Below are positions 22,846-54,971 of a stretch of DNA of 64,000 nt, one piece after another. The notes beneath the pieces were generated by a model. It was not told the origin of the DNA. It ran no database searches and worked only from the letters and a program-made list of their open reading frames with translations. A program made the translations under genes and the position numbers. The stretch covers positions 1 through 64,000 of IMG/VR virus record IMGVR_UViG_3300033994_001334, one strand, 5' to 3'. The DNA is from a virus (lineage: Duplodnaviria > Heunggongvirae > Uroviricota > Caudoviricetes). Position 1 is the stretch's first letter, and every line of letters begins with the position of its first letter.

Positions 22846-22851
22846 ATTTTG

Positions 22852-23064: not shown

Positions 23065-23073
23065 CCGTATAAT

Positions 23074-23460: not shown

Positions 23461-23505
23461 TAGGGTGTCACAGCCGCGAGGGTTCGAGCCCCTCATCTTC
23501 CGCCA
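23417..23505 (+). tRNA. tRNA-Ser(GCT), class II, CCA encoded
   Basis: Acceptor GGAAGGT/ATCTTCC. Anticodon stem TCAGT/ACTGA, loop TTGCTAA. T-arm GAGGG-TTCGAGC-CCCTC. Confidence 0.7.
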
Positions 23506-23992: not shown

Positions 23993-24417
23993 TGAAAAAT
24001 AAAATAAACATAGTTAATAGAAAATCTAAATTTGAATACCAATTCGTTGACACGTATACCGCCGGTGTTGTGTTAAATGGTGTCGAAGTTAAATTTATAC
24101 GAGATGGTAATTTATCATTTACGGATTCATATTGTATTTTCCAAAATGGAGAATTATTCATGAAAAATACTTCCATATCCGGTATTGGTAATGATAATAT
24201 CAGAAGAGACAGAAAACTATTACTGAAGAAAAAAGAACTTACTAAGTTAAATAAAGATTTAATTAATGGTTTATCAATAATCCCCTATCGTTTATATGAG
24301 AATGATAGGGGAATATTTAAAATTGAAGTTGTTCTTGCAAAAGGAAAGAAACTTCACGATAAGCGAGAGTCAATTAAAAAGAGAGATGTTGAAAGAGAAA
24401 TAAAAAAAATATTTTAA
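23992..24417 (+). CDS. smpB: SsrA-binding protein SmpB
   Basis: Matches along the whole SmpB length: NRKSKFEY…AGVVLNGVEVKFIRDGNLSFTDSY…RDRKLLLKKKEL…IIPYRLYENDRGIFKIEVVLAKGKKLHDKRESIKKRDVEREI. Confidence 0.85.
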   Translation: MKNKINIVNRKSKFEYQFVDTYTAGVVLNGVEVKFIRDGNLSFTDSYCIFQNGELFMKNTSISGIGNDNIRRDRKLLLKKKELTKLNKDLINGLSIIPYRLYENDRGIFKIEVVLAKGKKLHDKRESIKKRDVEREIKKIF

Positions 24418-38115: not shown

Positions 38116-38448
38116 ATGGATTGGTACGTTATTGAATATCTATACCCAAATGCATTGAACAAATTTATTAAAACTATGTTCCCAAATGTTGGTGTGCCTT
38201 GTTTATCGGTACTTTCGTATTACGATATTAAAAAACTTTATTCTTTTTTTGATAAATTTGGAATATATTTGACCGTTGAAACATACACAAAAGACATGTG
38301 GGGTTATACAATTTCATTGAACGATGGACGTGTTTTTTGTCCCATTCAAGAACCTAAAACAAGTAGGGAAGGTACTGAAATTGAGGGGTTTTATGAGTGT
38401 TTTAAACTGTTAGAAAAAAAATTAGAAAATATTTATTATTATGGATGA
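38116..38448 (+). CDS. hypothetical protein
   Basis: 110-aa ORF. Confidence 0.4.
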   Translation: MDWYVIEYLYPNALNKFIKTMFPNVGVPCLSVLSYYDIKKLYSFFDKFGIYLTVETYTKDMWGYTISLNDGRVFCPIQEPKTSREGTEIEGFYECFKLLEKKLENIYYYG

Positions 38449-38737
38449 GACCTTTGCATACCTACTACACACCGCAAGATTAATAACATCCAATAAACAT
38501 ACAAAAGATGATGTTGATTTTATTAATGACTTATTATTGAGTCTTGACAATGAGACTTTAATTCGTTATTTTAATACAAAGACAGTCGATACTATCGGTT
38601 GTGATTATAATTTATTTGTAAAACTTTGTAAATACGCAATTCATTATTATGAAAATAGTGAAGAGTATGAAAAGTGTGATAAATTAAAAAATAAAATGAA
38701 CGAGTCGGAAGACATAATTAAATTAAAAACAACGTAA
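38441..38737 (+). CDS. hypothetical protein
   Basis: 98-aa ORF overlapping the upstream stop. Confidence 0.4.
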   Translation: MDETFAYLLHTARLITSNKHTKDDVDFINDLLLSLDNETLIRYFNTKTVDTIGCDYNLFVKLCKYAIHYYENSEEYEKCDKLKNKMNESEDIIKLKTT

Positions 38738-38738
38738 T

Positions 38739-38885
38739 ATGAGCGGATTAAACATGAGTGAGGAGGAGAAGAAAAAAATTCTTCAACAACACAAAAAAGC
38801 AACAAGTGATGTAAATCAAAAAAGGGATGAACTTAAAAAAGGTTTACAGAACCCAAAACCAGAAAACAAAAAACCTAATCGTTAA
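38739..38885 (+). CDS. small basic protein (48 aa) followed by a terminator at 38873-38900
   Basis: ATG 2 nt after the previous stop. Hairpin CCTAATC…GATTAGG + T7. Confidence 0.3.
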   Translation: MSGLNMSEEEKKKILQQHKKATSDVNQKRDELKKGLQNPKPENKKPNR

Positions 38886-38888
38886 TGA

Positions 38889-39116
38889 TTAGGTTTTTTT
38901 CTTAGATGTTATCTTTGATAATATAAAAAAAGATAACCAAAAACATCCTGAAATAAAGTAGAAAACGATATCTGCACCCCAATACGAACCAGTTACCTCC
39001 ATCATCAATCTGAATAAAGCGTCGTACCCAAATGGGAGAAAGAACATCGCTAACATAAGCGACGTATCTCGATAGAGGGTCAGTCTTGTCTCTTTGTGTT
39101 TGAATTTGCGTATCAC
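38889..39116 (-). CDS. small membrane protein
   Basis: 75 aa with two TM helices. Confidence 0.4.
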   Translation of the reverse strand: MIRKFKHKETRLTLYRDTSLMLAMFFLPFGYDALFRLMMEVTGSYWGADIVFYFISGCFWLSFFILSKITSKKKT

Positions 39117-39198
39117 TATCGGGGTCCATATGTTTATATTAATATGTTTATGGTTTGAAACCTGTCGTAGTGATAAATATATTCAAAAATTGAAAATA

Positions 39199-42100
39199 TT
39201 AATTTTCTCTTCTTTCGTGTGCTTGATAATGTTTGATTCTATCGTGCCATATTGGTGCAGCTAATAAAATAGCCGGTTTAATGTTACCTAATTTAGTTTC
39301 TTGATAGATATGTGACATCCACGTTTGTTCAAATGGGTGTCCCCACTTAGTGTCTATGAACATCTTTTTATTACCCTCTTTACTAACAATCATAGGCCAG
39401 TTAGCGTAATAAACCTCGCCATCCAAGTAAGCCAATCCATCAAAAACTCTCATATTTTTAAAATTTGTTAGTGGTGCATTTGGGTCTAATCCCGTAACAG
39501 GTAATTTATCATAATCCGGCCAATCTCTAGTTCTTATTGCTTGGGGAACATTGTACCATGTACATTGTTTATCGTTATCGAAATAAACTTCAGTAAAGGT
39601 TAACTTTAAGAAATCAAATTTATCTCGTAACATAATTTTATGAACTATGTTATAAAGATTTGGAATATACTTTCTAAAACCATTTCTACAAAACTGACCT
39701 TCAATCTCTGGTGGGTTTACCGTCATATCATCTTCAAAGAAAAACATGAAGTCCGCATCAGATTCATGAAAATGTTCCGCGGCGGCTTGTCTACCACCAC
39801 ATATACCAGTGTTACCACCTAAACTAACATATTCAAAATTATACTGTTTAGCAATCTCCCTATTTTGGTCTCTAACTTCTTCTGTAGTTGAGTTATCCAA
39901 TAAAACCAAATGAGGTTTGTTTAACCATATTGGTGTTTTTTCCATTGATTTTATTGTATGTAAAACTTGTTCGGGGAAATTAAATGTTAGGATGTATAAA
40001 TTTGTTTTAACATTGTCAACATCTCTATCGGTGTATTTAATTGCATTATTGATTTTAGATTTATTGGGTGTAACAATTTTCACATCATTATCAATTACCG
40101 CTTGTGTGAATTTCACAATCAATCCATTACCATCAAGTTCGTATCTTCTATATAAGTCAGGTTCATTATATGACATTATAGTGAAAATACTCTCTTCTGT
40201 TCCCATATAACCAGCATTAATGGTTTTGGTCATTAAAGAATAATACGTTGAATTGGCCTCATTTAATTGTTGTTTATGACCACCAAATAAACCACCTCTA
40301 CAAACATACTCAACTTTAGACCCAGCAAAACGATTCATAGCATCAAATTCAAATCCATGAATTTCATTATTTGCTTCATATGGGTAACTCAAGAATAAAA
40401 ATGGATTACCATACTCCGTTAATTTATCTAAAATGTTATTTTCAACTAAATGTGTGTGAGGTACGGTATTTGTTATACCCGCATCCAACCAAAAGAAATA
40501 TTCTGTGTTAAACGGATTCCAAATTGAGGAGTCATTTAACATAAACATTTTTGATTGGACGATTGGGTTATACCATTCCAACTGTGCTTGAGGAGAACCT
40601 GGCAACCATCCGGCTAAATTTAACCATTCAGGATTGTTTCTTATTTCTTGTGTCTTATCCCAAAAAGGTCTGTAAATGTTTTTTACATCATCCAATTCAT
40701 AAATCTTAACAAAGGTATTTTCGGGTGTCCTTTTTTCCCAAACCAAATATTCATATTCTTTTGGAATGTAAATAAATAAATTTTGAGGTATATCTAAAAA
40801 CTTCTTAAAGTTTTCAATGTAATGGTCGAAGCTTCTACCGGTTCTGTTTATGTCCCATAATCCGGTTACAATGGTTAAATTCTTATTCACGTTAAATGTA
40901 GGTGTATTATTCTCAATTTCATTAGATTGAGTTTTATAAGTATTTTTTGAAAATTCCTCAGTATCATTTGTTAAACCTCTCTTAGAGTAATTTTTTCTTA
41001 TACATAGAAAAGTACCTTCATAAGATACGTCAAGATAATAATTATAAAAACATTCATGTTCATTAATTACCTCCATTAGTTCCTTATTGTATTCATTGAA
41101 AACATTAATTCCATCTCCACCACCTTTAATATCCTCAATTATATAGTATCCACCTTCTTTTACTTTACTAAAAAGGTTTTTAAATGTTGTTATTTGTGCA
41201 ATTGCGGTATGTAATCCATCATCAATAATAACATCAAATTCTAAATCTTTAAGGTTTATGATACATGAACTTGAATCTAAAGAACTCATCAAAAATGTTT
41301 TAATTCTCTCTTCTTCAATCATACAATCTTCAGCAACATCCATTCCATATATGTTACCTTTTGTAAAGTATTCTCTCCACATTCTTAAACATGCTGATGG
41401 TTTATAATGTGGATATGAATTTGTAATATCAGCAAAACTAGATTCAATCTCAGGCATCAATGTACCTAAACCAATCTCTAAATGGTTAATATTATCATGT
41501 CTAATACTTTCAAGTATTTTACTGTAATAGTTGTTGTATCCCGATTGTATTTTATCACTACCATATTTTAGTACGATATTATTAAACGATAATGAAACTT
41601 TTTTTTCAATTTCTTCTTCAATATCTTGAAGTTGTTGGTAAATCTCTAAAGCAACGGCATCAATATCTTGACCGATATCAACAATATACCCGTGGTAAGA
41701 CAATAAAGCTTGTGTCTGTAACTTTTCTTCTTCTGTTAAATTAATATATTCTAACCTTATAAATTTAGGTCTATATTTGGTTAAATCTAATTGTTTGAAA
41801 ATGTTCCAATCGTATCCTTCGGCATCACATATTAATATGTCAAAATATTCAATGTTGTATTTTTTAAGTAATGAATCAAATGTTAAAGATGGTACGGTTA
41901 CGTTAACACCAAATTGACCCATAACATCAATATCCGGTTGGTAATTACTACCAAACCCATTCTTTAATGGGTACATAGCACTCATACCTTTATATCCAGG
42001 ATGTAATCCTTCTCTTACAATAACATCAGGAGGTATGGTTAACATTTCTATTTCCCCATCGTGTTCCGTTATTGCACATTGCTCAAAAGTATAGTTTAAC

Positions 42101-42294
42101 CTATCTTTAAAATTTTCTTTTAATTCATTAAAAATTGCGGGAATTGGTTCTACTAAAAGTGATTTCCACTTGTACATATCTAAGAACCCTCTAGTGTCAT
42201 CAAAATTAACACCATCCATTGCCCCAATTTGTATAACAGATGCGTCCTCGTAATTTTTACCTATATAATGTAGTGTTTTTGATATTAAATCCAT
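39199..42294 (-). CDS. trifunctional sugar-modifying enzyme: FkbM-family methyltransferase + class-I SAM MTase (TylF/CmcI-like) + GT2-like glycosyltransferase
   Basis: N-terminus VIQIGAMDGVNFDD…FEQCAITEHDGEIEM (FkbM). Middle HLEIGLGT…VIIDDGLHT…GGYYIIEDI. C-terminus LVLLDNSTTEE…FFEDDMTV. 1031 aa. Confidence 0.65.
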   Translation of the reverse strand: MDLISKTLHYIGKNYEDASVIQIGAMDGVNFDDTRGFLDMYKWKSLLVEPIPAIFNELKENFKDRLNYTFEQCAITEHDGEIEMLTIPPDVIVREGLHPGYKGMSAMYPLKNGFGSNYQPDIDVMGQFGVNVTVPSLTFDSLLKKYNIEYFDILICDAEGYDWNIFKQLDLTKYRPKFIRLEYINLTEEEKLQTQALLSYHGYIVDIGQDIDAVALEIYQQLQDIEEEIEKKVSLSFNNIVLKYGSDKIQSGYNNYYSKILESIRHDNINHLEIGLGTLMPEIESSFADITNSYPHYKPSACLRMWREYFTKGNIYGMDVAEDCMIEEERIKTFLMSSLDSSSCIINLKDLEFDVIIDDGLHTAIAQITTFKNLFSKVKEGGYYIIEDIKGGGDGINVFNEYNKELMEVINEHECFYNYYLDVSYEGTFLCIRKNYSKRGLTNDTEEFSKNTYKTQSNEIENNTPTFNVNKNLTIVTGLWDINRTGRSFDHYIENFKKFLDIPQNLFIYIPKEYEYLVWEKRTPENTFVKIYELDDVKNIYRPFWDKTQEIRNNPEWLNLAGWLPGSPQAQLEWYNPIVQSKMFMLNDSSIWNPFNTEYFFWLDAGITNTVPHTHLVENNILDKLTEYGNPFLFLSYPYEANNEIHGFEFDAMNRFAGSKVEYVCRGGLFGGHKQQLNEANSTYYSLMTKTINAGYMGTEESIFTIMSYNEPDLYRRYELDGNGLIVKFTQAVIDNDVKIVTPNKSKINNAIKYTDRDVDNVKTNLYILTFNFPEQVLHTIKSMEKTPIWLNKPHLVLLDNSTTEEVRDQNREIAKQYNFEYVSLGGNTGICGGRQAAAEHFHESDADFMFFFEDDMTVNPPEIEGQFCRNGFRKYIPNLYNIVHKIMLRDKFDFLKLTFTEVYFDNDKQCTWYNVPQAIRTRDWPDYDKLPVTGLDPNAPLTNFKNMRVFDGLAYLDGEVYYANWPMIVSKEGNKKMFIDTKWGHPFEQTWMSHIYQETKLGNIKPAILLAAPIWHDRIKHYQAHERREN

Positions 42295-42299
42295 TTTTT

Positions 42300-45008
42300 T
42301 TATTTTTTATAATCGTATATTACTTCACTTATTTTTTCTTCTCCAATTCCATTTTGGTTCTTGTAGAACTCAACTAAAGATTCTTTATTTTTTTCAAAAA
42401 ATTCTTCTCTTGAGTTTGCTATTTCTAATTTATACATGCTTCTATATAAAAATTCATGGTGTAACGAAAAAAAATCATTTTCAGGATGGTATATATGTTT
42501 AACAATTCTAAAATCATTGGTTTCAACATCATATAGTTTATTAAAAAGACTACCTATCATAGAAGTTATCCATTCGTCTGGTACTGTCCAATTATTACCA
42601 TGTAATGTTGATGAATTAATTTCGTGTGCCATTTTAATTGTTCCATCCCATAAATTGAAATATTTTTTTAGTAAGTTAATATCATTAAACCAAAATCCTC
42701 TAAGCCACCCATCAATAGTAATTGAAGGGAATTCAAATCCCTCTATAGTTTCCCAATCAATTCCCTCTTTTTCAAAAATATCTTTTGTATATGAAATTGC
42801 ATCCAAATTATGAACACCACAAGACATTAGTGGACCAAATAAGACATTTTTACCGTCGTATTTATTTTTCATTTCATTATACATGTATTTTAATTCATCA
42901 TTAAAATTAATTAAACAATCCGAATCCAATAATGCAAATTTAGTAATACCTCTTTCAATTAACCACGGTAGAATATATCTCTGAGTTGATGATGAAAATC
43001 TTATTTTTTCTTCGTAATTTTTAATAAGTTTTTGAATATATAATTCATCATTTGATTCTTTAATCACCGGTTCATGTTCTCTACTAAAATCGTCAATTAT
43101 ATCATTTGAATCTACAACAATAAGATTAAATTTTACATCAATATCTTTTAATAATTCAGGTGTTGGTGTCATCACAATAACATTAACATTTTCAGGTATA
43201 TATTTAAAAGTTACCATCATTGTTTTAATGAATTGTGGACCAACTGGATAATAAACAAAATAAAAATCACTCATGTCCACCACATCCGTATTAGTAATAG
43301 ACTCTTCTATCTCAATCGATTCTTCAATAATAGTTGATTCTTTTACTTCAGTTAAATTAACTACAGGAGATGGAATTAAATGTGGGTCACCACATTTTTT
43401 AAAATAATAATTTTCAAGTACTAAACCATTCATTTCACTTTCTTTGAATATTTTAAATGCATCTTCAATTGTAGATAAAATTGGTTTTCCGTCTACATTA
43501 AATGATGTGTTCAATAAAACACCAATACCGGTTTTTTCGTTAAACATTGTAAGTAAATCATATAAAAATTCATTTTGTTGCCTAGTTACGGTTTGAACTC
43601 TAGCAGTCCCATCAACGTGGGTTATTGCACTTAATTTTTCTCTCCATTCCTCTCTAACTCTTGGACAAAAACTCATAAATCTAGATTCACCTTCCCAATA
43701 AAAATATTTGGATACATCTTCTAATCTAACAACAGGAGCGAATGGTCTGTACCATTCCCTGTGTTTAACTTTTTCATTTAAAATATCCTTCATATTAGGT
43801 ATTGATGGGTTACATAAAATACTTCTATTTCCTAATGCTCTAGGTCCATGTTCAGACCTACCTACAGCAACTCCAACAATTGAACCATTTATTAAATCAT
43901 CAGCTAATGTATTCAAATCTAATTCTGAAGATTTAAAGAAAAAATCTTGATTTTGAATTTTATTTCCCAGTGTTTCAAAATCCAGTAATTTAGTACCACT
44001 ATACGTTACATCAATTTGTTTTTTTGGTTTAATTTCATGTAACATCATACCTAAAGCAATTCCACAATCATTTGGGTTAGGACCAACAAATACTTCTTTG
44101 TTAAACTCTTCTTTAATTCTTGTGTTTAAAATAATATTCAATGCACATCCACCAGCAATGCAAATAGGTAAATCAGGATATTTTTCAATATATGGTTTAG
44201 CAACTTCTAAAAAACATTCTTCAAACGCTTTCTGACTTGTTGTTGCAATATTATATGCAATTTCATCTTTAAATCTATTGTTTATATCAAATGTTAAACC
44301 AATTTCATCTCCTAAAATTTTAAGTCTTTCCATATAATTCATTCCATTAACATCACTTTTATAAAATGTTATAAACGGATTTAACCATTCTTCTATAACT
44401 TTACCATAAGAAGATAGACCCATTACTTTACCTGGGTAAACTAAATTACCAATTGAAATATCTTGAAATTTAATATCATCAAGAAAATGAGCAAATATCA
44501 TGAAAGGAAAACCTAAATCATATTTAATATGGGGATAGTTAAATTTTGGGTTGTTAACCGATTCTAATAACTCAACTGAATTTTCTCTTGTTGCGGTATA
44601 GATATTGAATTTTCCATCGTTACCCCCACCATCAAATGAGAATATCAATGCACTCTCAAATGGTGATTGATAAAAACATCCGGCGGCATGTGCTTCGTGA
44701 TGATTTGATGTAATGAAATTTTTAGCCGGTATAAATTCTCTAGCCAAATCATGATTGCCATCGTAAATAATATCAGTATTTAAAGTGTAACAATTTTCGA
44801 ACTCATTGATGTTCAATAAATTCATTATGTATTGTGGTATGTACTTCGATAAAAAATATATATCTAAAACTTTTGGACACATATATTGAGCCATACCACT
44901 ATTTTTATAATTAAGAAACCTTTCAACTTCTAAAACAAGTAAGATTTCCCCTCCGTCCTCAACTACGTATGATGCATTATGAGACCCGTAAAAAGATAAA
45001 TTTGCCAT
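42300..45008 (-). CDS. NodU/CmcH-family carbamoyltransferase fused to a ~340-aa C-terminal domain of unknown function
   Basis: N-terminus YGSHNASYVVEDGG…NHHEAHAAGCFY…FDGGGNDG, the carbamoyltransferase HxxAH signature. 902 aa. Confidence 0.7.
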   Translation of the reverse strand: MANLSFYGSHNASYVVEDGGEILLVLEVERFLNYKNSGMAQYMCPKVLDIYFLSKYIPQYIMNLLNINEFENCYTLNTDIIYDGNHDLAREFIPAKNFITSNHHEAHAAGCFYQSPFESALIFSFDGGGNDGKFNIYTATRENSVELLESVNNPKFNYPHIKYDLGFPFMIFAHFLDDIKFQDISIGNLVYPGKVMGLSSYGKVIEEWLNPFITFYKSDVNGMNYMERLKILGDEIGLTFDINNRFKDEIAYNIATTSQKAFEECFLEVAKPYIEKYPDLPICIAGGCALNIILNTRIKEEFNKEVFVGPNPNDCGIALGMMLHEIKPKKQIDVTYSGTKLLDFETLGNKIQNQDFFFKSSELDLNTLADDLINGSIVGVAVGRSEHGPRALGNRSILCNPSIPNMKDILNEKVKHREWYRPFAPVVRLEDVSKYFYWEGESRFMSFCPRVREEWREKLSAITHVDGTARVQTVTRQQNEFLYDLLTMFNEKTGIGVLLNTSFNVDGKPILSTIEDAFKIFKESEMNGLVLENYYFKKCGDPHLIPSPVVNLTEVKESTIIEESIEIEESITNTDVVDMSDFYFVYYPVGPQFIKTMMVTFKYIPENVNVIVMTPTPELLKDIDVKFNLIVVDSNDIIDDFSREHEPVIKESNDELYIQKLIKNYEEKIRFSSSTQRYILPWLIERGITKFALLDSDCLINFNDELKYMYNEMKNKYDGKNVLFGPLMSCGVHNLDAISYTKDIFEKEGIDWETIEGFEFPSITIDGWLRGFWFNDINLLKKYFNLWDGTIKMAHEINSSTLHGNNWTVPDEWITSMIGSLFNKLYDVETNDFRIVKHIYHPENDFFSLHHEFLYRSMYKLEIANSREEFFEKNKESLVEFYKNQNGIGEEKISEVIYDYKK

Positions 45009-45025
45009 ATGATATTTTTTTTATT

Positions 45026-45559
45026 TTATTTTTTTATTCCGTAAAAATATAAATCATTAACGAAATAATCAACTTCAAAATGATATTCGGAAAACATTTC
45101 ATCTAAATTAAAATTTTCTCTATATTTTTGTTCATTTAGGTTTCCATAATAGTCATTAAGCACCGCAACTGCGGGAGCATCTTCAGGTCTGGATTTACTG
45201 GTTCCATGTTCACCTCTACCATCGTGAGCACAAGTAAACAATATTAAACCACCACTTTTTAATAACCTATACATGTTATCAAAGGATTCCTTCCAAAATT
45301 CATCATGTTCAAAACATTCTGTTGATATTGAAACATCAAATCTATCTTGGGTGTCATATTCGTGACCTCTACATACGAAATCTACGTTATTCCCTTCGAT
45401 TAAATCAACGCCAATATATTTATAATCACCTTCAAAAAGAAAATGATTTGTGCCGTTAACATCCAAAGAACCGACATCAAATATTAGAGTGTCTTTAAAG
45501 TAATTTGGGAATTTTTCTTTAACTTTTAAACAAAAGTTTTGTTGTTGTGGGTGTGCCAT
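45026..45559 (-). CDS. small methyltransferase-like protein
   Basis: LIFDVGSLDVNG…GVDL resembles SAM-binding motif I. Weak call. Confidence 0.4.
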   Translation of the reverse strand: MAHPQQQNFCLKVKEKFPNYFKDTLIFDVGSLDVNGTNHFLFEGDYKYIGVDLIEGNNVDFVCRGHEYDTQDRFDVSISTECFEHDEFWKESFDNMYRLLKSGGLILFTCAHDGRGEHGTSKSRPEDAPAVAVLNDYYGNLNEQKYRENFNLDEMFSEYHFEVDYFVNDLYFYGIKK

Positions 45560-45562
45560 ATA

Positions 45563-46510
45563 TTAATATAAATTTTTAGTAAAAAATGATGAGAATGATA
45601 TCTCTGTTTCTGGGTTAAATACTCCTTTTTCAATCCAATCTTCATGATAGAATGTATTAAAAGTCCAATTTTTAATGTTTTCTGGATACTTTGTGTTTAA
45701 ATAACACATAATCTCTTGTTCGGGTATTAAATAATCATCATTACTTAATATCTTTTCTATAAGTTCGTAACAAAATTCAACATATTTAGGGATTAAATTT
45801 GAGTTACCACCAAAAAAACCCGCAACAGGGTAGTTGATGTGACTTACCTCATTTAGTGTGTTTTGTAAGTCTAATTTTTCTAAAAATTGACCAAAATTAT
45901 AATGGGTACTTGTGTGACAAAGATTTATTAGTTTATTATCGTTAAATTCATTTACTCTTTTAACAAATTCAGGTGTAAATGCTTTAGTAAAATTATAATA
46001 TCTAAATTCCACTTCTGCTCCGTTTTCATTTGGAAATCCTTGGTCATAACCGTCTAAATCAGAGTACGGGTTGGTATTTTTTGCAAATAATCCAGGGTGA
46101 GAAAGACCACAGTCTATCCAATATAAATTAATATCTGGTTCAAATTCTAAATTCATAAAATGAAACTTCAACCAATAAATTTGTGGAGAAATATAAAATC
46201 TATAATCACTAAAATCTTTATACTGTGGAAATTTATCACTCGAAGCAATTTTATAAATTCTTTCTTGCCAAGGATTGTCACTTAATTTGAATATCTTTAT
46301 TTCTAAATTATTCAAATTGTGTGTATTCTTAATTTCTAAAAGTTGATTATATCCATAATCACCATCATCGGTATAACAAACAACTTGTTCGTTAACATTA
46401 CATATGGAAATTAAAGAATATTTATACCATCTTTCTCTATTTTTTTGTCCCCAAAATGGTTCACCAGAGTGATATGCATAATAGGACGTTACAAATTTAG
46501 TTTTCATCAT
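45563..46510 (-). CDS. hypothetical protein in the glycan locus
   Basis: 315-aa ORF. Confidence 0.45.
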   Translation of the reverse strand: MMKTKFVTSYYAYHSGEPFWGQKNRERWYKYSLISICNVNEQVVCYTDDGDYGYNQLLEIKNTHNLNNLEIKIFKLSDNPWQERIYKIASSDKFPQYKDFSDYRFYISPQIYWLKFHFMNLEFEPDINLYWIDCGLSHPGLFAKNTNPYSDLDGYDQGFPNENGAEVEFRYYNFTKAFTPEFVKRVNEFNDNKLINLCHTSTHYNFGQFLEKLDLQNTLNEVSHINYPVAGFFGGNSNLIPKYVEFCYELIEKILSNDDYLIPEQEIMCYLNTKYPENIKNWTFNTFYHEDWIEKGVFNPETEISFSSFFTKNLY

Positions 46511-46524
46511 TTTTATTTTTATTT

Positions 46525-47109
46525 TTATTTAGTTAAGATTAATACCCCCAAGCCATCTTTCCAACGTTCAATTACTATTTCATTTTTAAGAAAATCGGTC
46601 GTTATAATTTCTTTTGTGTTACTATAACCAGTTTGATTAGCTATGGATTTTAATTCGGGAATCCAAGATAAATTTACAATATCTTCAATAACCATTATTC
46701 CCCCGACCTTTAGTTTACTATAATAATTTTTAATTAAAAATTCAAATGATGTATATGTGTGAACACCATCATCAACTATTATATTAAAAAAATTATTGTC
46801 AAATAAATTTAACACTTCTTCACAGTAAGCGTCCGATACCCTTTGAGTTACATTTGGTATTGAGGATATCATTTCACAAAATTTTATATCTAAAGTGTGT
46901 ATTTGGGAATCGGGGTGAAAATAATCTTTCCACATTAGAATTGAATCTCCGTTTTGTACACCTATCTCAAGAAAATTTATCGGTGCATTTTTATATGAAT
47001 CAAATAACTCTGAATATAAATTATCAATATAACCTAATTCATATTTATCTGTTTTATATTTATCTCGATTTTCGAGATAAAGGTCTATTAGTTTTTTATT
47101 CATTTTCAA
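46525..47109 (-). CDS. class-I SAM methyltransferase (TylF/CmcI-like), paralogous to the middle domain of the 1031-aa protein
   Basis: FLEIGVQNGDS…IIVDDGVHT…GGIMVIEDI. Confidence 0.6.
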   Translation of the reverse strand: MKMNKKLIDLYLENRDKYKTDKYELGYIDNLYSELFDSYKNAPINFLEIGVQNGDSILMWKDYFHPDSQIHTLDIKFCEMISSIPNVTQRVSDAYCEEVLNLFDNNFFNIIVDDGVHTYTSFEFLIKNYYSKLKVGGIMVIEDIVNLSWIPELKSIANQTGYSNTKEIITTDFLKNEIVIERWKDGLGVLILTK

Positions 47110-48070
47110 TTATTTTTATTATGTTATTTAATCTGGTTAAAGGGTGTAAATTTTCCTCATAGTATTTTCTTGAATTTTTAGAAATAAAATTTAAAAATTC
47201 TAAATCATCTTTTACTTCTAAAAATCTTTTCAAATATAAATTTGAATATTCTTCACCTCCATATCTTTCTTCATCTATTTCTCCAATTCTTTCTATAGAT
47301 ATGTAATGATAATTTGGTATTAATTCCGGATTCCACTTTGTTAAATATTCAAATTTAATAAAAGGTAAACCTATCGCCATATATTCCACATCTCTATGAC
47401 AAAGTTCACCAATGCCCGGAATCGATAAACCAATCTTGTATTCGGTTAATGAATTAAAATATTGATATTGAGATAAGTATTCTGGCCCGTCAAAATATTC
47501 ATTACCTACCATAAATTTTACGGAATTTCTTGGCATAGAATCGACGTTACCTCTAAATACCATTTTGTCTTTAAAATCTTTTCGTGATAATCTTTTTAAG
47601 TAGTAATTATCAAATGACGAATATATTGTCGATTCGGGTAAATAATTTGCCGGTATAAATTTAAATTTCTCATTTCTTTCTTTATGAAATCTAAGTAGAG
47701 TAGAACCATTTTGTGCGAGAATAAGTAAATCATTTGGGTTATCTCTATGACGTAATAGACCACTTAATAAAGAATCTGTATCACAAAAACAAATTCCCTT
47801 TATTACGTCAATATCTTCATAATGGATTAATAATTGACAATCAAGGATAGTTATTTCAAAATGACCAATTTTAATAAATTGGTCATTTACTACATACTGT
47901 ATATTATATCCATAATTTTTATTTAAGAACAACGCAATTGTATGAAGATAATATTGAAAATCTTTCCCTATATTATCTTGACAATAAATTGTTGGTTTAT
48001 TTAAATCCGGCATATGTCTAATATAAATATTTTTTTTAATTAAATCAATCTTTTTTGAAATATTCCCCAA
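47096..48070 (-). CDS. hypothetical protein (glycan locus)
   Basis: 324-aa ORF. Confidence 0.45.
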   Translation of the reverse strand: MGNISKKIDLIKKNIYIRHMPDLNKPTIYCQDNIGKDFQYYLHTIALFLNKNYGYNIQYVVNDQFIKIGHFEITILDCQLLIHYEDIDVIKGICFCDTDSLLSGLLRHRDNPNDLLILAQNGSTLLRFHKERNEKFKFIPANYLPESTIYSSFDNYYLKRLSRKDFKDKMVFRGNVDSMPRNSVKFMVGNEYFDGPEYLSQYQYFNSLTEYKIGLSIPGIGELCHRDVEYMAIGLPFIKFEYLTKWNPELIPNYHYISIERIGEIDEERYGGEEYSNLYLKRFLEVKDDLEFLNFISKNSRKYYEENLHPLTRLNNIIKIIENE

Positions 48071-48740
48071 TTATAAATTTAGTATTAGTGTTAATTGTGG
48101 GTTTATCACTTGGTATAAATTTTTTAGAATCAACTAATCTAAAATCAATTGATACTCTTGTTGATTCGGATATATTTTCTTTGTTTCCGTGCATAAGATT
48201 TGCACCACTAAAAACTAAAATTTCGCCATATTTTACTAAATATGGTTTAAAGTCACCTCTATTTTCCTTACTCTCAATCCAAACGGAATTATATTCATTT
48301 GTATCGGTAAATGGTAACCAAAAATTCACTTCAGACACTCCGTGGTTATATGACTTATCTTTATGCCATTCTCCAACAGCTAAATTACCATTATTTAATT
48401 GTACTCTGAATGTTGGGATTTTTTGATATATTAATTCATCATATTCAAAAATGTCCTTTATTTCTTTTATTAATGAAAGATATGTTGGATAAAATTTTTC
48501 ATTAAAATTGGCGTAGTATTTTTTATGCCAAATTGTTGATTGGTCATTTTCGCGAATTAATTTATCGTAATGTTTTATTGTGTGTAATTTTTCTAAATCA
48601 ACGTCTATTTCCAAAATGTTATGGATTATCTCTTTGAATTGAAATTTCTTCGTGTCATAACTTATTTTATAAGGAACCGGTAAATACATATTTGTACAAT
48701 TTTTTTTTATTTTAATTTTATTTCTACTCTTTCGGCCCAA
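48045..48740 (-). CDS. cupin / 2OG-Fe(II)-oxygenase-like protein
   Basis: WHKDKS (HxD) and …LMHGN downstream His. Weak call. Confidence 0.4.
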   Translation of the reverse strand: MGRKSRNKIKIKKNCTNMYLPVPYKISYDTKKFQFKEIIHNILEIDVDLEKLHTIKHYDKLIRENDQSTIWHKKYYANFNEKFYPTYLSLIKEIKDIFEYDELIYQKIPTFRVQLNNGNLAVGEWHKDKSYNHGVSEVNFWLPFTDTNEYNSVWIESKENRGDFKPYLVKYGEILVFSGANLMHGNKENISESTRVSIDFRLVDSKKFIPSDKPTINTNTKFIIGEYFKKD

Positions 48741-49969
48741 CCTCTTTCAGGTGAATGAGCCCAATATACTACCCTCGATGGTTCTACATCAGTTAAGAAC
48801 ATTTCCTCGTAGTGTATCGGTCCGTCATTATTAAGGAATTTTTGTAAATCGTGACCATTAATTATTTTACTGTAAATACCCACACCATTTTCATCATCGT
48901 ATGCGATTAAAATACTATCATAGTCATTAGCATGTAAATCGTGTCTATTAACGGTTACCAAATAATAATATGAACGAACAAATGAGTTCTCCCACTCTTC
49001 TTCAGTTTCAAATTGAGGATTAGGTGGGAATTTATTATCTATTGTATGTTTTTGAAATGATTTCTTTTTAAAATGAATTCCCGCATATTTTTCGTAATCT
49101 CTAACGGTTCTCACTTTACCGACATCATAACCAGTTAAATCGTGACCACCATCTTCGACACCAATTAGTTGTCTTATTCTTGAACGACCAATATCTTGCT
49201 GTTTATGCCACATACTTTCACCCCTTTTATGTTGGTCATCCCAAACCAACATACCACTTCTTTCTTCTCTCATTGTTGCGTGCCATATAATAACTCTATG
49301 TGGGTGGAACAAATCATATCCGTGGGTAAAAGACCTAACAGATAAATTTAACTCTTCACCACTAAAGAAAATATTTGGGTCATGTTTCACATCCTTAGCC
49401 CATTTATTGGGTCCGAAAGCAAAATGACCACTAAGGAATCTTGCGGGATACGGTTTCGTTAATTCTCTCCAATTTGGAATACCCGTTGGTCTAATAAAAA
49501 TAGTACCATGTGGGTAAAAACTTGCCGCTTCCGATAACCATGGCTCCATGACTCTCTTTTCAGGGTCATTGTATGGGTCGTAATATGGTAAATAACCACA
49601 GATTAATGGGTTGTAACCATCACCTTTTAAATCATAATACCATTTAATTAATGTTGAATCCCAATCCTTATCAAATCTATGATGTGAATCTAATTGAACA
49701 ACAAATTCTTCGTCTTCCAATAATTCATCGTTTATTATCCCTCTAGCGTACGCTAAACCTTTGGCTTCCAAATAATGAATATCTTTTATTTTAAACCTCG
49801 GGTCATTTCTAAATTCGTCAACATTATCAAATCCATCATCTGGATTAAATTGTCTACAAATACCGAAATGTATTCTTTCGGGAAACTGTGCATTTTCTAA
49901 AGCACTTTTAATTGTTGGGATTAATTCCGGTTCTCTATATGCCGGTAAGTGTACTAATATTCTATCCAT
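48707..49969 (-). CDS. GT-A-fold glycosyltransferase, GlcNAc-transferase-like (DxH motif QLDSHHRF)
   Basis: DSH motif as in GT27/GT60-type enzymes. Paralog of the next gene. Confidence 0.5.
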   Translation of the reverse strand: MDRILVHLPAYREPELIPTIKSALENAQFPERIHFGICRQFNPDDGFDNVDEFRNDPRFKIKDIHYLEAKGLAYARGIINDELLEDEEFVVQLDSHHRFDKDWDSTLIKWYYDLKGDGYNPLICGYLPYYDPYNDPEKRVMEPWLSEAASFYPHGTIFIRPTGIPNWRELTKPYPARFLSGHFAFGPNKWAKDVKHDPNIFFSGEELNLSVRSFTHGYDLFHPHRVIIWHATMREERSGMLVWDDQHKRGESMWHKQQDIGRSRIRQLIGVEDGGHDLTGYDVGKVRTVRDYEKYAGIHFKKKSFQKHTIDNKFPPNPQFETEEEWENSFVRSYYYLVTVNRHDLHANDYDSILIAYDDENGVGIYSKIINGHDLQKFLNNDGPIHYEEMFLTDVEPSRVVYWAHSPERGWAERVEIKLK

Positions 49970-49983
49970 GTTAATATATTTTT

Positions 49984-51240
49984 TTAAATGTTTCCTTCAA
50001 TTCTATCACACCATCCATTTTTTTCTGAGTGTGGCCATACTATCCATTTTCGAGGTCTGTCTACGGTTTCGAATGTTCTCCAAACTTTACAATACCCATC
50101 AGGGTCATTCTTCATCATTTTTATTTCGTTAATATCAGCGTCTCTTCTATAAAGTTCATTACCATTTTCGTCTTCAAATATTACCGCCCAAAAAGTGTAA
50201 TCATCATATGGTACTTGGTGATAACCCACATCAATACAATGTTTAAAAACCAATGAAAATGAATTCTCATATTCAATTGGGTCTGATATAATTGGATTTG
50301 GTGCTAAATTATTATTTAAAGTATATTGTTGAACCCCTCTCTTTTTAAAAGAAATTCCGGCATATTTTTCATATTGTTCCAATGTTCTTACTTTACCAAG
50401 ACCATATATTCCAAAATCAATTTCTTTACCATCATCCTCCATCCCAAATAATTTTCTATTTTTATAGTGACAATAGTTGTTTCTTCTCACCCAATCAGGG
50501 TCGTCATCCCATTGTTTAATAGAACCTTTTCTTGTATAATAATGCCAAACCAATACTCTATGTAAATGGAATAAATCATATCCGTGTGTAAATGCTCTCA
50601 CAGCAATTGATATTTCTTCACCGTGAAAATAAAATTCAGGGTCATGTTGAACTTCTTTTGCAAATTGACCTAAAGTGAATGCAAAATGTGCCGAATAAAA
50701 TCTAGCGTGAACAGGTTCAGTTCTTTCTCTAAAATCGTCAATTGACGCAGGTAGAAAGAACACAACACCTTCAGGACTGAATCTATCAAAATTCATTTTC
50801 CATGGTATATCTAATCTTTGTGCTGGGTCATTATCAGGTTCGTAAGATGGAATATATCCGGTAATTAAAGGTTTTGGGTAACCCTTATCTTGTAGTTTTT
50901 TAAGTTCGTTTATCAATTCATCATCCCAATTAGAGACGAATCTGTGATGAGAATCCAATTGAAGAGTGTACTTCTCACCCCCATATTGTTGTTGTAGCAT
51001 GTTACGAGACCAACAAGCACCTTTCGATGTTTTATAGTCAATGTCAATGATTTTAAATCTAGGGTCACACCTATATTCATCTAAATTATCCCACTCATCA
51101 TCTTTAGAGTGTTGCCAAGCAATTGAAAATACCAAATTTTCAGGGTATTTTGCATTCTCGATACAGTTTTTTAAGGTGGGAATTAATTGTTTATCTCGAT
51201 AAGATGCAATTTGAATAAATATTTTTTCGTTTTCACTCAT
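49984..51240 (-). CDS. GT-A-fold glycosyltransferase paralog (QLDSHHRF)
   Basis: Roughly 40% identical by eye to 48707-49969 (…DPRFKI…QLDSHHRF…FTHGYDLFH…). Confidence 0.5.
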   Translation of the reverse strand: MSENEKIFIQIASYRDKQLIPTLKNCIENAKYPENLVFSIAWQHSKDDEWDNLDEYRCDPRFKIIDIDYKTSKGACWSRNMLQQQYGGEKYTLQLDSHHRFVSNWDDELINELKKLQDKGYPKPLITGYIPSYEPDNDPAQRLDIPWKMNFDRFSPEGVVFFLPASIDDFRERTEPVHARFYSAHFAFTLGQFAKEVQHDPEFYFHGEEISIAVRAFTHGYDLFHLHRVLVWHYYTRKGSIKQWDDDPDWVRRNNYCHYKNRKLFGMEDDGKEIDFGIYGLGKVRTLEQYEKYAGISFKKRGVQQYTLNNNLAPNPIISDPIEYENSFSLVFKHCIDVGYHQVPYDDYTFWAVIFEDENGNELYRRDADINEIKMMKNDPDGYCKVWRTFETVDRPRKWIVWPHSEKNGWCDRIEGNI

Positions 51241-51344
51241 TACTGTTGTATTTTTAACAATAATACCAATTTACACCTATATTGTCAAGTATAGTTTGAC
51301 TTTTAAATTTTTTTTGCTTATATTTTAAGTATTAAAAAATCGAT

Positions 51345-51719
51345 ATGGATAGAAAATATCAACCAGTGGTTTTAGACCATGCAGGTGTGATTATTGGAAT
51401 GCTTAGAGAAACAAATTTTTTTGTTGATTATGAATTGGAGAGTGAAGATTTTGCAACGGAGTACATGTGTGGAAAATTAACTGAAAAATTTATCCAAGGT
51501 GAATTGAATGGTGAATTTGACATTGAGGTTTTTTCAGAAGATGAAATGGAAAAATTTCTCAGAGAGATTGTTGCCGGTAGTATATTAATGGAACTACAGG
51601 AAAAAGGAATAATTGATTCTATTGAAGATGAAAACAACGAAGAACGTTTTTTCCTTACTGATTTGGGTAAAAATCTAGCTGACGATATAAAGAAACATTT
51701 AGAAACCGAAGAAGAATAA
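51345..51719 (+). CDS. acidic hypothetical protein
   Basis: 124-aa ORF. Confidence 0.4.
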   Translation: MDRKYQPVVLDHAGVIIGMLRETNFFVDYELESEDFATEYMCGKLTEKFIQGELNGEFDIEVFSEDEMEKFLREIVAGSILMELQEKGIIDSIEDENNEERFFLTDLGKNLADDIKKHLETEEE

Positions 51720-52049
51720 TTATTTTTTCTTTTCGTCCACTTGTTGTTGATATGTGGATTTTTTGTGCTCTTTAACTTTATTTTTAAGTTGTTTCAACGT
51801 ATTGTGAGCACCATACAAACTGGAACTTATTGATTTTAATCGGTTACCCGATAAAGTCTTCAATCCATCGGGAATAGAATCCTCAACTTTACGAAGTTCC
51901 TTAATGGTTTCCACTAATTGATTTTCAAGTTCTTCCATTTTAAATTGAACTTTACTGTAATCATTTCTATTAACCTTAGAAGTTTCTTCTTTAAGGATAT
52001 TTTTAATTACATTACGCACTATTTCTTCGTTTATTGTTATATTACCCAT
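51720..52049 (-). CDS. coiled-coil hypothetical protein
   Basis: 109-aa ORF. Confidence 0.4.
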   Translation of the reverse strand: MGNITINEEIVRNVIKNILKEETSKVNRNDYSKVQFKMEELENQLVETIKELRKVEDSIPDGLKTLSGNRLKSISSSLYGAHNTLKQLKNKVKEHKKSTYQQQVDEKKK

Positions 52050-52371: not shown

Positions 52372-52734
52372 ATGGCAGACGAAAAACAACCAACAGTAAA
52401 TCCGGTCGTAAAACAGGTCGAAGAACAGTATCCTGAAATGACCAAAGAGTTTAAAAGAATCATGAGGGAACAATATGAACTGTTTTGTAAAAAACAATCA
52501 AATTACGGTCCCGATAACATTTCTTTAGGTAGAGATTTGATTAAAGATGAAGATAAAAAATTATCACAAATGGGTTTATTCTTCAGAATGAATGATAAAA
52601 TCCAAAGAATCAAACAATTAGTTGTTATTGGTACAGATGACAACGTTGGTGAGGCGGTTGAAGACACCTATAAAGATTTATCCGTATATGGTATTATCGC
52701 TCAGTTGGTAAGAAGTGGTAAATGGGGTAAATAA
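52372..52734 (+). CDS. hypothetical protein
   Basis: 120-aa ORF. Confidence 0.4.
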   Translation: MADEKQPTVNPVVKQVEEQYPEMTKEFKRIMREQYELFCKKQSNYGPDNISLGRDLIKDEDKKLSQMGLFFRMNDKIQRIKQLVVIGTDDNVGEAVEDTYKDLSVYGIIAQLVRSGKWGK

Positions 52735-53808: not shown

Positions 53809-54420
53809 TTAATGTTTTATACATTTTATTTCGTAACTCGGCCATTTATTGGTCGGTTTAATATTTTGAAATTTATAACATTTCCAAACACCGGTTTTAT
53901 GAAAATGAATGTGCTTTACTAAATAAGAAGGTATTGTTGCACCTGATGGTAAAACTTTAGAGTCATTATCGAATAATAATTCAATTTTTACCATTAAAGG
54001 TTCTTTATCGTCCCATACTCTTTCCTGTTCTTCTAATAATCTCCATTCACCTCTGTTTAAGTCTTGTTGTTGTAATGCGCAGTTCAAATAACTAAATGTT
54101 TGTTTAAGATTTTCCATGTTATCAGAAAATGATGCCGCTGGCGCTAAATGACCCTTATCCCACTCATTATTTTTGTAGTCTTGAGGACCTGAAGTAATAA
54201 TCTTAGGTTCTAAGTAAAAATCCATAGAACCCCTGTTAACATTTGTTGGTCTATTAATGGACTCGTACTTTAACATTAATGGTTGTTTTAGTTTTTGGGA
54301 GTACTCCACTTCAAATACTTTGTTTTTTATAACCACAACATCCTTATCGGGTGTGATGAATGAATTAAATAGTAATCCAAAAAATAGTGCAATTACACTA
54401 AACGTTAAAAATTTTTTCAT
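53809..54420 (-). CDS. secreted DNA/RNA non-specific endonuclease (NucA/Serratia-nuclease family)
   Basis: Signal peptide. Active-site motif DKGHLAPAA (compare DRGH). Downstream …N.G.W..LE. Confidence 0.65.
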   Translation of the reverse strand: MKKFLTFSVIALFFGLLFNSFITPDKDVVVIKNKVFEVEYSQKLKQPLMLKYESINRPTNVNRGSMDFYLEPKIITSGPQDYKNNEWDKGHLAPAASFSDNMENLKQTFSYLNCALQQQDLNRGEWRLLEEQERVWDDKEPLMVKIELLFDNDSKVLPSGATIPSYLVKHIHFHKTGVWKCYKFQNIKPTNKWPSYEIKCIKH

Positions 54421-54971
54421 AGTTTGTTTGTTTTTATATAATTAAATATATCAACAGCTGTATTTGAACAAACAGGAAACTCAATAAATGGTATATCGTG
54501 TATAAGTAGTTTATCTTTAATTGATTCATCAATTTCTTTAGATTCTTTAAGATTTTGAAACCTACCATTTTCGTTGTATGTGGTGTCATCTCTTTTTAGT
54601 AAAACATTTAAACTATTGTATTTCTTGAATAGTCTTAAAATAAAGAAATCAAAACTATTATCATAAAATGATGCTGGGTATTCGGGTTCATCATTATATA
54701 AGTCTTTATAGACCATACCTAAAATAATCGGTGAATCAACTATTATGTATTTTACTTTACCATATAATCTACTAATATTACGATGTTGATTTGCGGTGAT
54801 ATAAAATTGGTCTTTGATTGCTGAGTGATTTTCCTCCCAAGCAATTATTTTTGGAAATTCAAAAGTTAACTCAACATCCATGTGGTTTTTTTTCATTAAA
54901 GTAAAAAGTTCCGCACTTTGAGTTGATTTACCTATTCCAGGTCCACCAAAAAGATTAATAATTATACTCAT
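54417..54971 (-). CDS. P-loop nucleotide/NMP kinase-like protein
   Basis: N-terminal GGPGIGKST Walker A. 184 aa. 4-nt overlap with the nuclease gene. Confidence 0.5.
   Translation of the reverse strand: MSIIINLFGGPGIGKSTQSAELFTLMKKNHMDVELTFEFPKIIAWEENHSAIKDQFYITANQHRNISRLYGKVKYIIVDSPIILGMVYKDLYNDEPEYPASFYDNSFDFFILRLFKKYNSLNVLLKRDDTTYNENGRFQNLKESKEIDESIKDKLLIHDIPFIEFPVCSNTAVDIFNYIKTNKL

Follow-up and report, generated by a model that had tools for sequence, protein, structure and literature searches.

The DNA analysed here (the window) is a 64,000-nucleotide stretch of the tailed-phage record IMGVR_UViG_3300033994_001334, positions 1 to 64,000. We describe a cassette at 39199-51240 that encodes glycosyltransferases (GTs), methyltransferases and an O-carbamoyltransferase, and for which we propose a role in mucin-type O-glycosylation of phage proteins. 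It consists of nine minus-strand open reading frames (ORFs) in a row, g9 to g1 in reading direction, which fill the interval exactly and are separated by gaps or overlaps of a few to about 35 nucleotides (Table 1). Their domains comprise seven of glycosyltransferase-like type, four methyltransferases, a TobZ/NodU-type O-carbamoyltransferase and a 2-oxoglutarate (2OG) oxygenase. Three independent ENA/NCBI assemblies (L033, L034 and L035) match the cassette gene for gene, down to the two large fusion proteins, so it is real and no assembly artefact. A megablast search of phage records with the 12-kb locus returned no match.

A first-pass annotation of the window had described nine consecutive minus-strand genes encoding two DxH-type GT-A paralogs, a 2OG-oxygenase-like protein, three or four S-adenosylmethionine (SAM) methyltransferases and a NodU/CmcH-type carbamoyltransferase. 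Our searches agree with this gene content, the number of methyltransferase domains being four, and the carbamoyltransferase and glycosyltransferase folds are confirmed by domain searches. Glycosyl transfer combined with O-methylation and O-carbamoylation of a glycan is supported at the level of domains and folds.

Table 1. Cassette genes, their domains and adjacent transcription signals (window positions)
Feature	Position	Strand	Assignment and matches
g9	49984-51240	-	GT-A glycosyltransferase, GT60 family; PF11397 at 1.4e-70; phrog_24687, full length, 2e-167
g8	48707-49969	-	Paralog of g9; PF11397 at 2e-49
g7	48045-48740	-	2OG-Fe(II) oxygenase, 'sporadic carbohydrate cluster' type; start probably 48689 (214 aa)
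g6	47096-48070	-	GT-B-fold glycosyltransferase; start probably 48013 (305 aa)
g5	46525-47109	-	SAM methyltransferase; PF13578 at 8.3e-06; phrog_21658 at 1.5e-12
g4	45563-46510	-	HtrL/YibB-like paralog with WIDCG and GFFGG motifs; homolog of ORF332 of jumbo phage XacN1
g3	45026-45559	-	Small class-I SAM methyltransferase; PF13489, PF08241; phrog_32762, full length, 1.6e-55
g2, residues 1-549	43362-45008	-	TobZ/NodU/GdmN-type O-carbamoyltransferase: Kae1-like domain and YrdC-like domain
g2, residues 550-902	42300-43361	-	Glu/Ser/Ile-rich linker, then orphan domain of about 325 aa (578-902), fused in frame
g1	39199-42294	-	1031 aa, four domains (next four lines)
g1, FkbM methyltransferase	41590-42294	-	PF05050 at 2.2e-15
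g1, MycE/TylE-like sugar O-methyltransferase	40915-41589	-	PDB 3ssm (MycE) 1.4e-12; 8ia9 (TylE) 4.5e-11
g1, HtrL_YibB	40075-40914	-	PF09612 at 7.7e-12, residues 473-716, 45.8 bits (cutoff 24.1)
g1, GT2	39202-40074	-	PF00535 at 1.3e-05
Promoter-like site	51260-51288	-	TTGACA-17-TATTAT with TG extension; about 20 nt upstream of g9
Two terminator-like hairpins	38868-39065	-	3' of g1; 39065-39044 (8-bp stem) and 38899-38868 (13-bp stem, then T run); pattern matches only

The cassette opens with the two GT-A paralogs. With 239 bits for g9 and 169 bits for g8, both score far above the curated PF11397 cutoff of 21. They are 41% identical to each other and have an invariant D-S-H-H motif in common; the DxH motif of g9 is D96-S97-H98. 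Both end in a beta-rich C-terminal domain of about 110 residues, which for g9 has no Pfam match at E up to 10. Searching PDB sequences with g9, by sequence and by profile, gave chance matches only. The AlphaFold2 (AF2) model of g9 has a pLDDT of 91.3, and the structures that match it best are mucin-type polypeptide GalNAc-transferases of family GT27, headed by GalNAc-T1. The GT-A fold, the DxH metal motif and the structural relation to GT27 that characterise GT60 are all found in g9. GT27 enzymes start mucin O-glycans. TcOGNT1 of Trypanosoma cruzi, a characterised GT60 member, forms GlcNAc-alpha-O-Thr on mucin-like proteins (PMC9472816). We propose g9 as an initiating polypeptide O-glycosyltransferase. 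A search recovered at least 7540 homologs of g9; identity is 66-85% for the best 120, and many lie on contigs of 200-330 kb. The g9-g8 pair is also present in four other loci (L007, L023, L024 and L031).

Further glycosyltransferase-like domains are found in g1, g4 and g6. The 1031-residue g1 had been read as a fusion of an FkbM methyltransferase, a class-I methyltransferase and a GT2 domain; these are present, and a fourth domain, HtrL_YibB, had been missed. The HtrL-GT2 half of g1 is the usual last gene of the corresponding region in related loci (16 of 30) and equals ORF330 of XacN1. The HtrL/YibB family occurs in outer-core loci of lipooligosaccharide (LOS). g4 has no Pfam match, also at E up to 10, and aligns with the HtrL domain family in hhalign at 97.8% probability (E 1.1e-12); it is a putative sugar transferase. 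For g6, Pfam likewise gave nothing at E up to 10. None of its 179 homologs carries a Pfam domain, and some are fused to an FkbM methyltransferase. Judged by its AF2 model (pLDDT 94.5), g6 represents a new GT-B glycosyltransferase family that lacks a Pfam model. In sequence and profile searches of PDB sequences, g4, g6 and g7 gave chance matches only.

The carbamoyltransferase part of g2 matches PF16861 at 2e-64 over the full model (1-170 of 170), PF02543 at 1.3e-22, above the gathering score, and phrog_1601 at 5e-128. Its PDB matches are 7xb6 (4.6e-50), GdmN (1.4e-42) and TobZ (9e-37). The N-terminal Kae1/ASKHA-like domain contains the HxxxH metal site as HHEAH (103-107), and the C-terminal YrdC-like domain of the type that forms carbamoyl adenylate is present. 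g2 is predicted to perform ATP- and carbamoyl-phosphate-dependent O-carbamoylation of a hydroxyl. A related carbamoyltransferase is found in 144 phage records.

The extra C-terminal domain that the carbamoyltransferase had been credited with does exist; it is really a separate gene that was fused recently. In the close relatives L031 and L032, the orphan domain is a standalone 324-aa gene that starts 12 nucleotides after a 556-aa carbamoyltransferase gene and is 83% identical (8318-10975 of L031 corresponds to g2, 42300-45008). We therefore regard the 902-aa g2 as a recent in-frame gene fusion, and the linker has the appearance of intergenic sequence that came to be translated. An artefact of assembly or a frameshift was rejected, since the fusion is intact in the independent assemblies L033 and L035. 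The orphan domain contains a DxD-like motif, LLDSDC (692-698), and an invariant HIYHPEND (838-845). A deep profile search places it in a family of 30 clusters and 129 representatives, nearly all of them standalone proteins of about 330 aa. The domain has no match in Pfam (E up to 10), only chance matches in PDB and none in hhalign, including the comparison with the g9 family. Pfam scans of remote family members gave a single GT34 match, which lies in another region of the fusion protein P0368. From the DxD and His motifs alone, the domain is possibly a GT-A-like (GT8-like) transferase.

The four methyltransferase domains are distributed over g3, g5 and g1, which has two. g5 is related to the second, MycE/TylE-like domain of g1 (phmmer 2e-12). 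The oxygenase g7 matches TIGR04324 at 4.5e-15, below the curated cutoff, and PhyH weakly; H126-x-D128, H185 and R195 are present, so that the HxD...H triad is intact. Its homolog in L033 is called as 214 aa. Since g7 is restricted to the closest relatives of the window, it stands outside the core of the island described below. A function as prolyl hydroxylase in a Skp1-like Hyp-GlcNAc pathway was considered and rejected, as the family is a carbohydrate-cluster oxygenase and not P4H.

No membrane-spanning segment is predicted in any of the nine proteins (maximum KD19 hydrophobicity 1.47). Pfam and NCBIfam searches of the cassette revealed no flippase, polymerase, ligase or phosphoglycosyltransferase domain. 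A check for sugar-nucleotide synthesis genes came out negative for the cassette and for the window ORFs scanned.

On related contigs, the genes flanking the cassette are conserved on both sides, and g9 is the first gene in all related loci with 48-75% identity. The middle differs from phage to phage. It contains GT25, GT10, GT11 and GT34 glycosyltransferases, O-methyltransferases of the FkbM, TylF and CmcI types, GDP-mannose dehydratase, epimerases, UDP-galactopyranose mutase (GLF), DegT aminotransferase and occasionally a carbamoyltransferase. Island length ranges from about 4 kb to the 11-12 kb of the version in the window. We conclude that a freshwater lineage of jumbo phages, related members of which have 300-kb genomes, carries a hypervariable, operon-like glycosylation island, and that the locus represents one of its alleles. 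Within the window, G+C is lowest in the middle of the cassette (40001-48000), at 0.267-0.297 compared with 0.31-0.36 across most of the window (about 31% overall), which is consistent with mosaic acquisition. The conserved upstream flank encodes a weak match to DUF1599 ('nucleotide modification associated domain 1'; 9.5e-05), a non-specific DNA/RNA endonuclease and an AAA_28 kinase-like protein (52372-52734, 53809-54420 and 54417-54971). These genes could hint at nucleotide metabolism or modification, whether linked to the island or not.

Homologs of g9 are found in only four phage isolates. In the cultured Xanthomonas/Stenotrophomonas jumbo phages XacN1, Xoo-sp13, CM1 and RAS14, homologs of g9 and of the carbamoyltransferase are adjacent. 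XacN1 and Xoo-sp13 have in common a core of g9 homolog, carbamoyltransferase, g4 homolog, a 246-aa gene and HtrL-GT2.

The genomic neighbours of this module may point to its substrate. We defined a mucin-like ORF by at least 70% Ser, Thr and Pro (S+T+P) over 40 aa and counted it as near when it lies within 1.5 kb of the module. Of 23 non-redundant phage or metagenome loci, 10 have such an ORF near the module, directly before g9 or after HtrL-GT2. In phage loci, mucin-like ORFs make up 12 of 88 near ORFs and 1 of 190 far ORFs (Fisher p=5.6e-6). An example of the Thr/Pro/Ser repeat in a phage neighbour is PTSTPTSTPTATPTATPT. L031 is the closest relative to have the same cassette type; its first GT is preceded, at a distance of 66 nucleotides, by the gene for a SprB-repeat protein that contains a Thr/Pro repeat. 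The phage neighbours lack signal peptides, and their folded domains come from at least five unrelated families. Because these domains are unrelated, the association is with the mucin-like feature itself.

The module, in the form g9-[carbamoyltransferase]-[FkbM]-HtrL-GT2, also occurs in bacterial chromosomes, for example on a 1.3-Mb contig of the isolate Jiulongibacter sediminis. Here, too, Thr/Pro-repeat ORFs are more frequent close to the module (10 of 233 near and 4 of 440 far; p=0.005). Bacterial loci with such neighbours are L055 (6956-13157, Jiulongibacter sediminis), L073, L052, L076, L089 and L104. A twin-arginine-like signal was seen in all 12 of the clustered bacterial Thr/Pro-repeat neighbours inspected, and some bacterial mucin-like neighbours also have a C-terminal domain of the type IX secretion system (T9SS) type. 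We infer that they would fit cytoplasmic glycosylation before export by twin-arginine translocation (Tat). The bacterial module may represent an undescribed pathway in which cytoplasmic mucin-type O-glycosylation precedes Tat export. A consistent polysaccharide-locus context for the bacterial copies was rejected, as their neighbours are heterogeneous.

For XacN1, published observations are available. Its authors had proposed that ORF334, the g9 homolog, might glycosylate virion proteins, and the virions contain at least two Schiff-stained glycoproteins (PMC5852040). The DNA of XacN1 was mapped with BssHII, NaeI and SpeI (PMC5852040); because these enzymes cut, it carries no heavy modification at C or T. 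ORF325 of XacN1, a protein of 3313 aa with a Thr/Pro-rich stretch, is encoded after the baseplate genes and about 2.5 kb from the module.

A protein target is favoured because of three lines of evidence: the GT60-like initiator, the mucin-like neighbours in phages and bacteria, and the glycoproteins and digestible DNA of XacN1. We assign a probability of about 55% to cytoplasmic mucin-type O-glycosylation of Thr/Pro/Ser-repeat phage proteins, which are probably fibre or decoration proteins of the virion. In this pathway, g9, perhaps aided by g8, would transfer the first sugar from a host UDP-sugar onto Thr or Ser of a polypeptide. The chain would then be extended by the HtrL-GT2 part of g1, by g4 and g6, and possibly by the orphan domain of g2. 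Tailoring would follow through the four methyltransferase domains, the O-carbamoyltransferase and the 2OG oxygenase. The product would be a methylated and carbamoylated O-linked glycan, specific to this phage variant and built in the host cytoplasm. Which protein accepts the glycan, which sugars are donated, in what order the steps run and what each enzyme catalyses are deduced, like all functional statements made here, from sequence, predicted structure and gene context.

Within the window, three Ser/Thr-rich proteins were considered as acceptors. Two of them are poor candidates for a cytoplasmic acceptor, because their signal peptides direct them to the Sec export route. The third, encoded at 33781-35970, is a weak candidate. 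It is a conserved downstream neighbour of 729 aa with a membrane helix predicted at about 248-267 and a peptidoglycan-binding-like segment, and its Thr-rich linkers are TTPTPTITPNPST and NPTSTTGTTTNTGTTISTTGTTTTDT. The acceptor of this phage may lie outside the 64-kb window.

Several observations weigh against mucin-type glycosylation of virion proteins. To our knowledge, no phage or bacterial GT60-like enzyme has been characterised, and we know of no activity for HtrL/YibB proteins. Peripheral soluble GTs are normal in lipid-linked polysaccharide pathways, too. A mucin-like ORF adjoining the cassette is absent in the window and in its closest flank-sharing relatives L003, L005, L007 and L015. 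The protein at 33781-35970, the best candidate in the window, reaches only 57% S+T+P, and the feature is not seen in its L003 homolog. That the mucin-like proteins are located in the virion is assumed; a tblastn comparison of two of them with annotated phages gave no match to an annotated structural protein. The DUF1599, nuclease and AAA_28 genes of the flank would equally suit a DNA-modification neighbourhood. Finally, the Schiff-stained bands of XacN1 were neither identified nor tied to ORF334 (PMC5852040).

The cassette could instead remodel the host surface. Its enzymes would then act at the inner membrane on undecaprenyl-linked intermediates of host O-antigen, capsule or LOS, with initiation, flipping and ligation left to host enzymes and a block of superinfection as the outcome. 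Variable GT clusters of jumbo phages and carbamoyltransferase/2OG oxygenase/methyltransferase clusters of cyanophages were read in this way by Iyer et al. 2021 (PMC7824862). HtrL_YibB, GT25 and the TIGR04324 oxygenase are typical of lipopolysaccharide, LOS and 'carbohydrate cluster' loci, related cassettes encode nucleoside diphosphate (NDP)-sugar synthesis as O-antigen loci do, and the variability of the island resembles that of O-antigen loci. However, clusters of the O-antigen or capsule type contain an initiating phosphoglycosyltransferase, a flippase and polymerase or an ATP-binding cassette (ABC) transporter, and membrane proteins. Judged by Pfam, NCBIfam and hydrophobicity, the cassette has none of these; no Wzx/Wzy protein and no ligase was found either. 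Its conserved first enzyme resembles polypeptide transferases and not those for lipid-linked sugars. Furthermore, adjacency to signal-less mucin-like proteins is not predicted by host-surface remodelling, and the bacterial copies of the module are not embedded in polysaccharide loci. We consider this explanation unlikely.

Hypermodification of phage DNA is less probable still. Here, the GTs would act on 5-hydroxymethylpyrimidines, and the carbamoyl- and methyltransferases would tailor the base or the sugar to protect against restriction or CRISPR. A phage carbamoyltransferase of the same Pfam architecture does modify 5-hydroxymethylcytosine (5hmC), producing 5-carbamoyloxymethylcytosine (Yang et al. 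2021, PMC8670742). Multi-sugar DNA glycans made by phage GT-A and GT-B enzymes exist, the XacN1 module lies close to DNA polymerase and RNase H genes, and the conserved flank carries the weak DUF1599 match, Endonuclease_NS and AAA_28. However, genes of modification pathways usually cluster, and the expected partners were not found. Scans of the window (Pfam, tblastn) and of the surrounding +/-10 kb in 35 related loci (tblastn) showed no thymidylate-synthase-like gene, the ThyA query used for tblastn being of limited sensitivity. Neither 5mYOX/TET nor a C5-methyltransferase is among the Pfam matches of the window ORFs and relatives' called genes scanned, a set that did not comprise every ORF. 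PRA-PH and dCMP deaminase were not found among the window ORFs scanned (most of those with >=100 aa) and the genes called in L003-L006 and L031-L035. According to the MetaGPA study, carbamoyltransferases that have glycosyltransferases on their flanks are on unmodified contigs, and co-occurrence with ThyS is specific to modified ones (PMC8670742). The JGT-like GT-A enzymes that act on DNA (Pyle et al.) are associated with 5mYOX or ThyS, of which none was found near the cassette; their R...DDD...EDY/F motifs are not those of g9, which has DSH at the DxD position, as judged from the text description and not from a JGT alignment. Eight of the nine cassette proteins are acidic with predicted isoelectric points of 4.5-6.2, which is weak evidence against a DNA substrate. 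The cleavage of XacN1 DNA by NaeI, BssHII and SpeI points in the same direction.

We regard it as similarly improbable that the target is a non-virion protein, namely a mucin-like phage or host protein that is glycosylated in the cytoplasm and then exported, for instance by Tat, to the surface of the infected cell. The twin-arginine-like signals and T9SS-type domains of the bacterial neighbours would fit such a route, and the window encodes several secreted proteins, including one with a T9SS tail and cohesin domain. However, the mucin-like neighbours in phage loci have no signal peptide, the secreted proteins of the window carry Sec-type signals and are not Thr/Pro-repeat proteins, and the glycoprotein bands were seen in purified XacN1 virions (PMC5852040). 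A free glycoside or secondary metabolite, such as a methylated and carbamoylated oligosaccharide or an aminoglycoside-like toxin or signal, is very improbable: the closest solved relatives of the carbamoyltransferase and of the second g1 methyltransferase are indeed the antibiotic-tailoring enzymes TobZ, GdmN, novobiocin carbamoyltransferase, MycE and TylE, and Iyer et al. raised this option for the cyanophage cluster (PMC7824862), but Pfam and NCBIfam show neither scaffold genes (polyketide synthase, non-ribosomal peptide synthetase, cyclitol, aminotransferase) nor an exporter in the cassette, and seven GT-like domains, a polypeptide-GT-like head and the link to mucin-like proteins would not be expected.

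Protein glycosylation by the cassette can be compared with known systems. The closest likeness is to mucin-type initiation by GT27 and GT60 enzymes such as TcOGNT1 and Gnt1 of Skp1 in Dictyostelium and Toxoplasma. g9 and g8 belong to the same GT60 family with its DxH motif, g9 has a GalNAc-T1-like structure, and Thr/Pro/Ser-repeat proteins are encoded beside the phage module. The cytoplasmic Skp1 pathway has soluble enzymes throughout, and in it a multi-domain enzyme containing GT2 acts after a GT60 enzyme. The phage cassette also combines a GT60-like enzyme with a multi-domain GT2 enzyme, and all its proteins are predicted to be soluble. It differs in its prokaryotic and viral setting, in the beta-rich C-terminal domain that replaces the ricin-type lectin domain, and in HtrL, the carbamoyltransferase and the four methyltransferases, which have no counterpart in the eukaryotic systems. 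In serine-rich-repeat adhesins of Gram-positive bacteria (GtfA/GtfB, accessory Sec), the initiator is a GT-B enzyme of GT4 and not a GT-A enzyme of the GT60 type, and the export route and taxa are different.

Viral precedents share some of these features. According to the summary of Freeman et al. 2023 in PMC12619734, mycobacteriophage GTs glycosylate virion proteins in the cytoplasm, at the C-termini of capsid and tail-tube subunits. Compared with these, hosts and enzyme families differ, the island is hypervariable, the candidate acceptors are long Thr/Pro-repeat linkers, and the present system is predicted from its genes. Chlorovirus PBCV-1, with the GT-GT-methyltransferase A064R and with A075L, is a eukaryotic virus that places atypical N-linked glycans on its major capsid protein; it lacks both carbamoylation and an initiator of the GT60 type. 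The cyanophage and jumbo-phage clusters contain the same variable GTs, Nol-like carbamoyltransferases, 2OG oxygenases and O-methyltransferases, and phrog_1601 is common to both (PMC7824862). In contrast to the cassette, the cyanophage clusters have complete NDP-sugar synthesis sets and halogenases and lack a GT60-like gene (PMC7824862). The 5hmC carbamoyltransferase is likewise encoded by phages and has the same two-domain architecture, but lies within 3 kb of a thymidylate-synthase homolog, PRA-PH and dCMP deaminase, whereas the neighbours in the cassette are GTs and methyltransferases (PMC8670742).

In view of these precedents, the suggestion of the first-pass annotation that the gene combination is closer to Nod-factor or antibiotic tailoring than to known phage functions was overstated. 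PHROG families and 144 phage records cover such enzymes, the 5hmC carbamoyltransferase exists, and clusters for glycans and carbamoyltransferases in jumbo phages have been reviewed (Iyer et al. 2021, PMC7824862). Freshwater 'moraphages', described in 2025, have core glycosyltransferase orthogroups, to which that description assigns no role. From the three targets that had been offered, decoration of proteins is the one we favour, host surface and DNA being less supported. A carbamoylated protein glycan on a phage would still be new within the literature searched. Within the same literature, we found no description of the island with its conserved GT60-like initiator, of the link to Thr/Pro-repeat proteins in phages and bacteria, or of recruitment of carbamoyl- and methyltransferases into a protein-glycan pathway.

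As a tentative generalisation, somewhat more doubtful than the pathway proposed for the phages, jumbo phages and a range of bacteria might perform true mucin-type O-glycosylation, in which GT27/GT60-like enzymes seed the glycan and variable cassettes elaborate it to give a glycocalyx on virions and Tat-exported surface mucins on bacteria. If this is true, an abundant freshwater jumbo-phage lineage decorates its own proteins with mucin-type glycans and varies their composition by cassette exchange, much like bacterial O-antigen variation. Such variation of the viral surface would be relevant to host recognition, to evasion of recognition by hosts or grazers and to particle stability. The island would also provide new enzymes, including a protein-glycan O-carbamoyltransferase, a four-domain MT-MT-HtrL-GT2 protein, a GT-B family and the orphan domain family. 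It would yield the first carbamoylated protein glycan, together with a prokaryotic and viral relative of the eukaryotic mucin and Skp1 initiators. XacN1 and Jiulongibacter sediminis are cultured, which makes the system testable.

The promoter-like site upstream of g9 is the best sigma-70-type match in 38400-51800, with 11 of 12 positions, and represents a consensus match only. Sigma-70-type sites show no overall enrichment, and Bacteroidota promoters deviate from that consensus. A Bacteroidota host is indicated because secreted proteins of the window carry a type-IX-secretion tail and SprB repeats; the host of the phage lineage is probably a member of this phylum.

From its sequence, the window looks like part of a jumbo phage. 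It contains an array of 25 tRNA genes (17510-23505), directly followed by an SmpB homolog (23992-24417; Pfam 3.4e-42, tblastn to E. coli SmpB 1.7e-13), and ARAGORN found no tmRNA gene in the window. A ClpA-like ATPase (phrog_4871, 1e-245), an AAA_33 kinase-like gene and a T4 Rnl1-type RNA ligase adjoin one another (4063-6075, 6472-6933 and 6935-7978) and look like a tRNA/RNA repair module. A protein with a cREC_REC (cyclic-phosphate processing receiver) domain is also encoded. Three secreted phage proteins are found at 14522-16420, 8749-11058 and 11055-12761. Their types are a cohesin with a type-IX-secretion C-terminal sorting domain, a C-type-lectin-like motif with a dockerin-like repeat, and a Ser/Gly/Thr/Asn low-complexity region of about 220 aa that precedes a beta-barrel-like C-terminus. 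This suggests that the phage puts a cohesin-dockerin-type assembly on the surface of the infected Bacteroidota cell. The window further encodes a 627-aa SPFH/Band-7 domain protein (24482-26365) and an endolysin with GH19 and PG_binding_1 domains (57673-58500).

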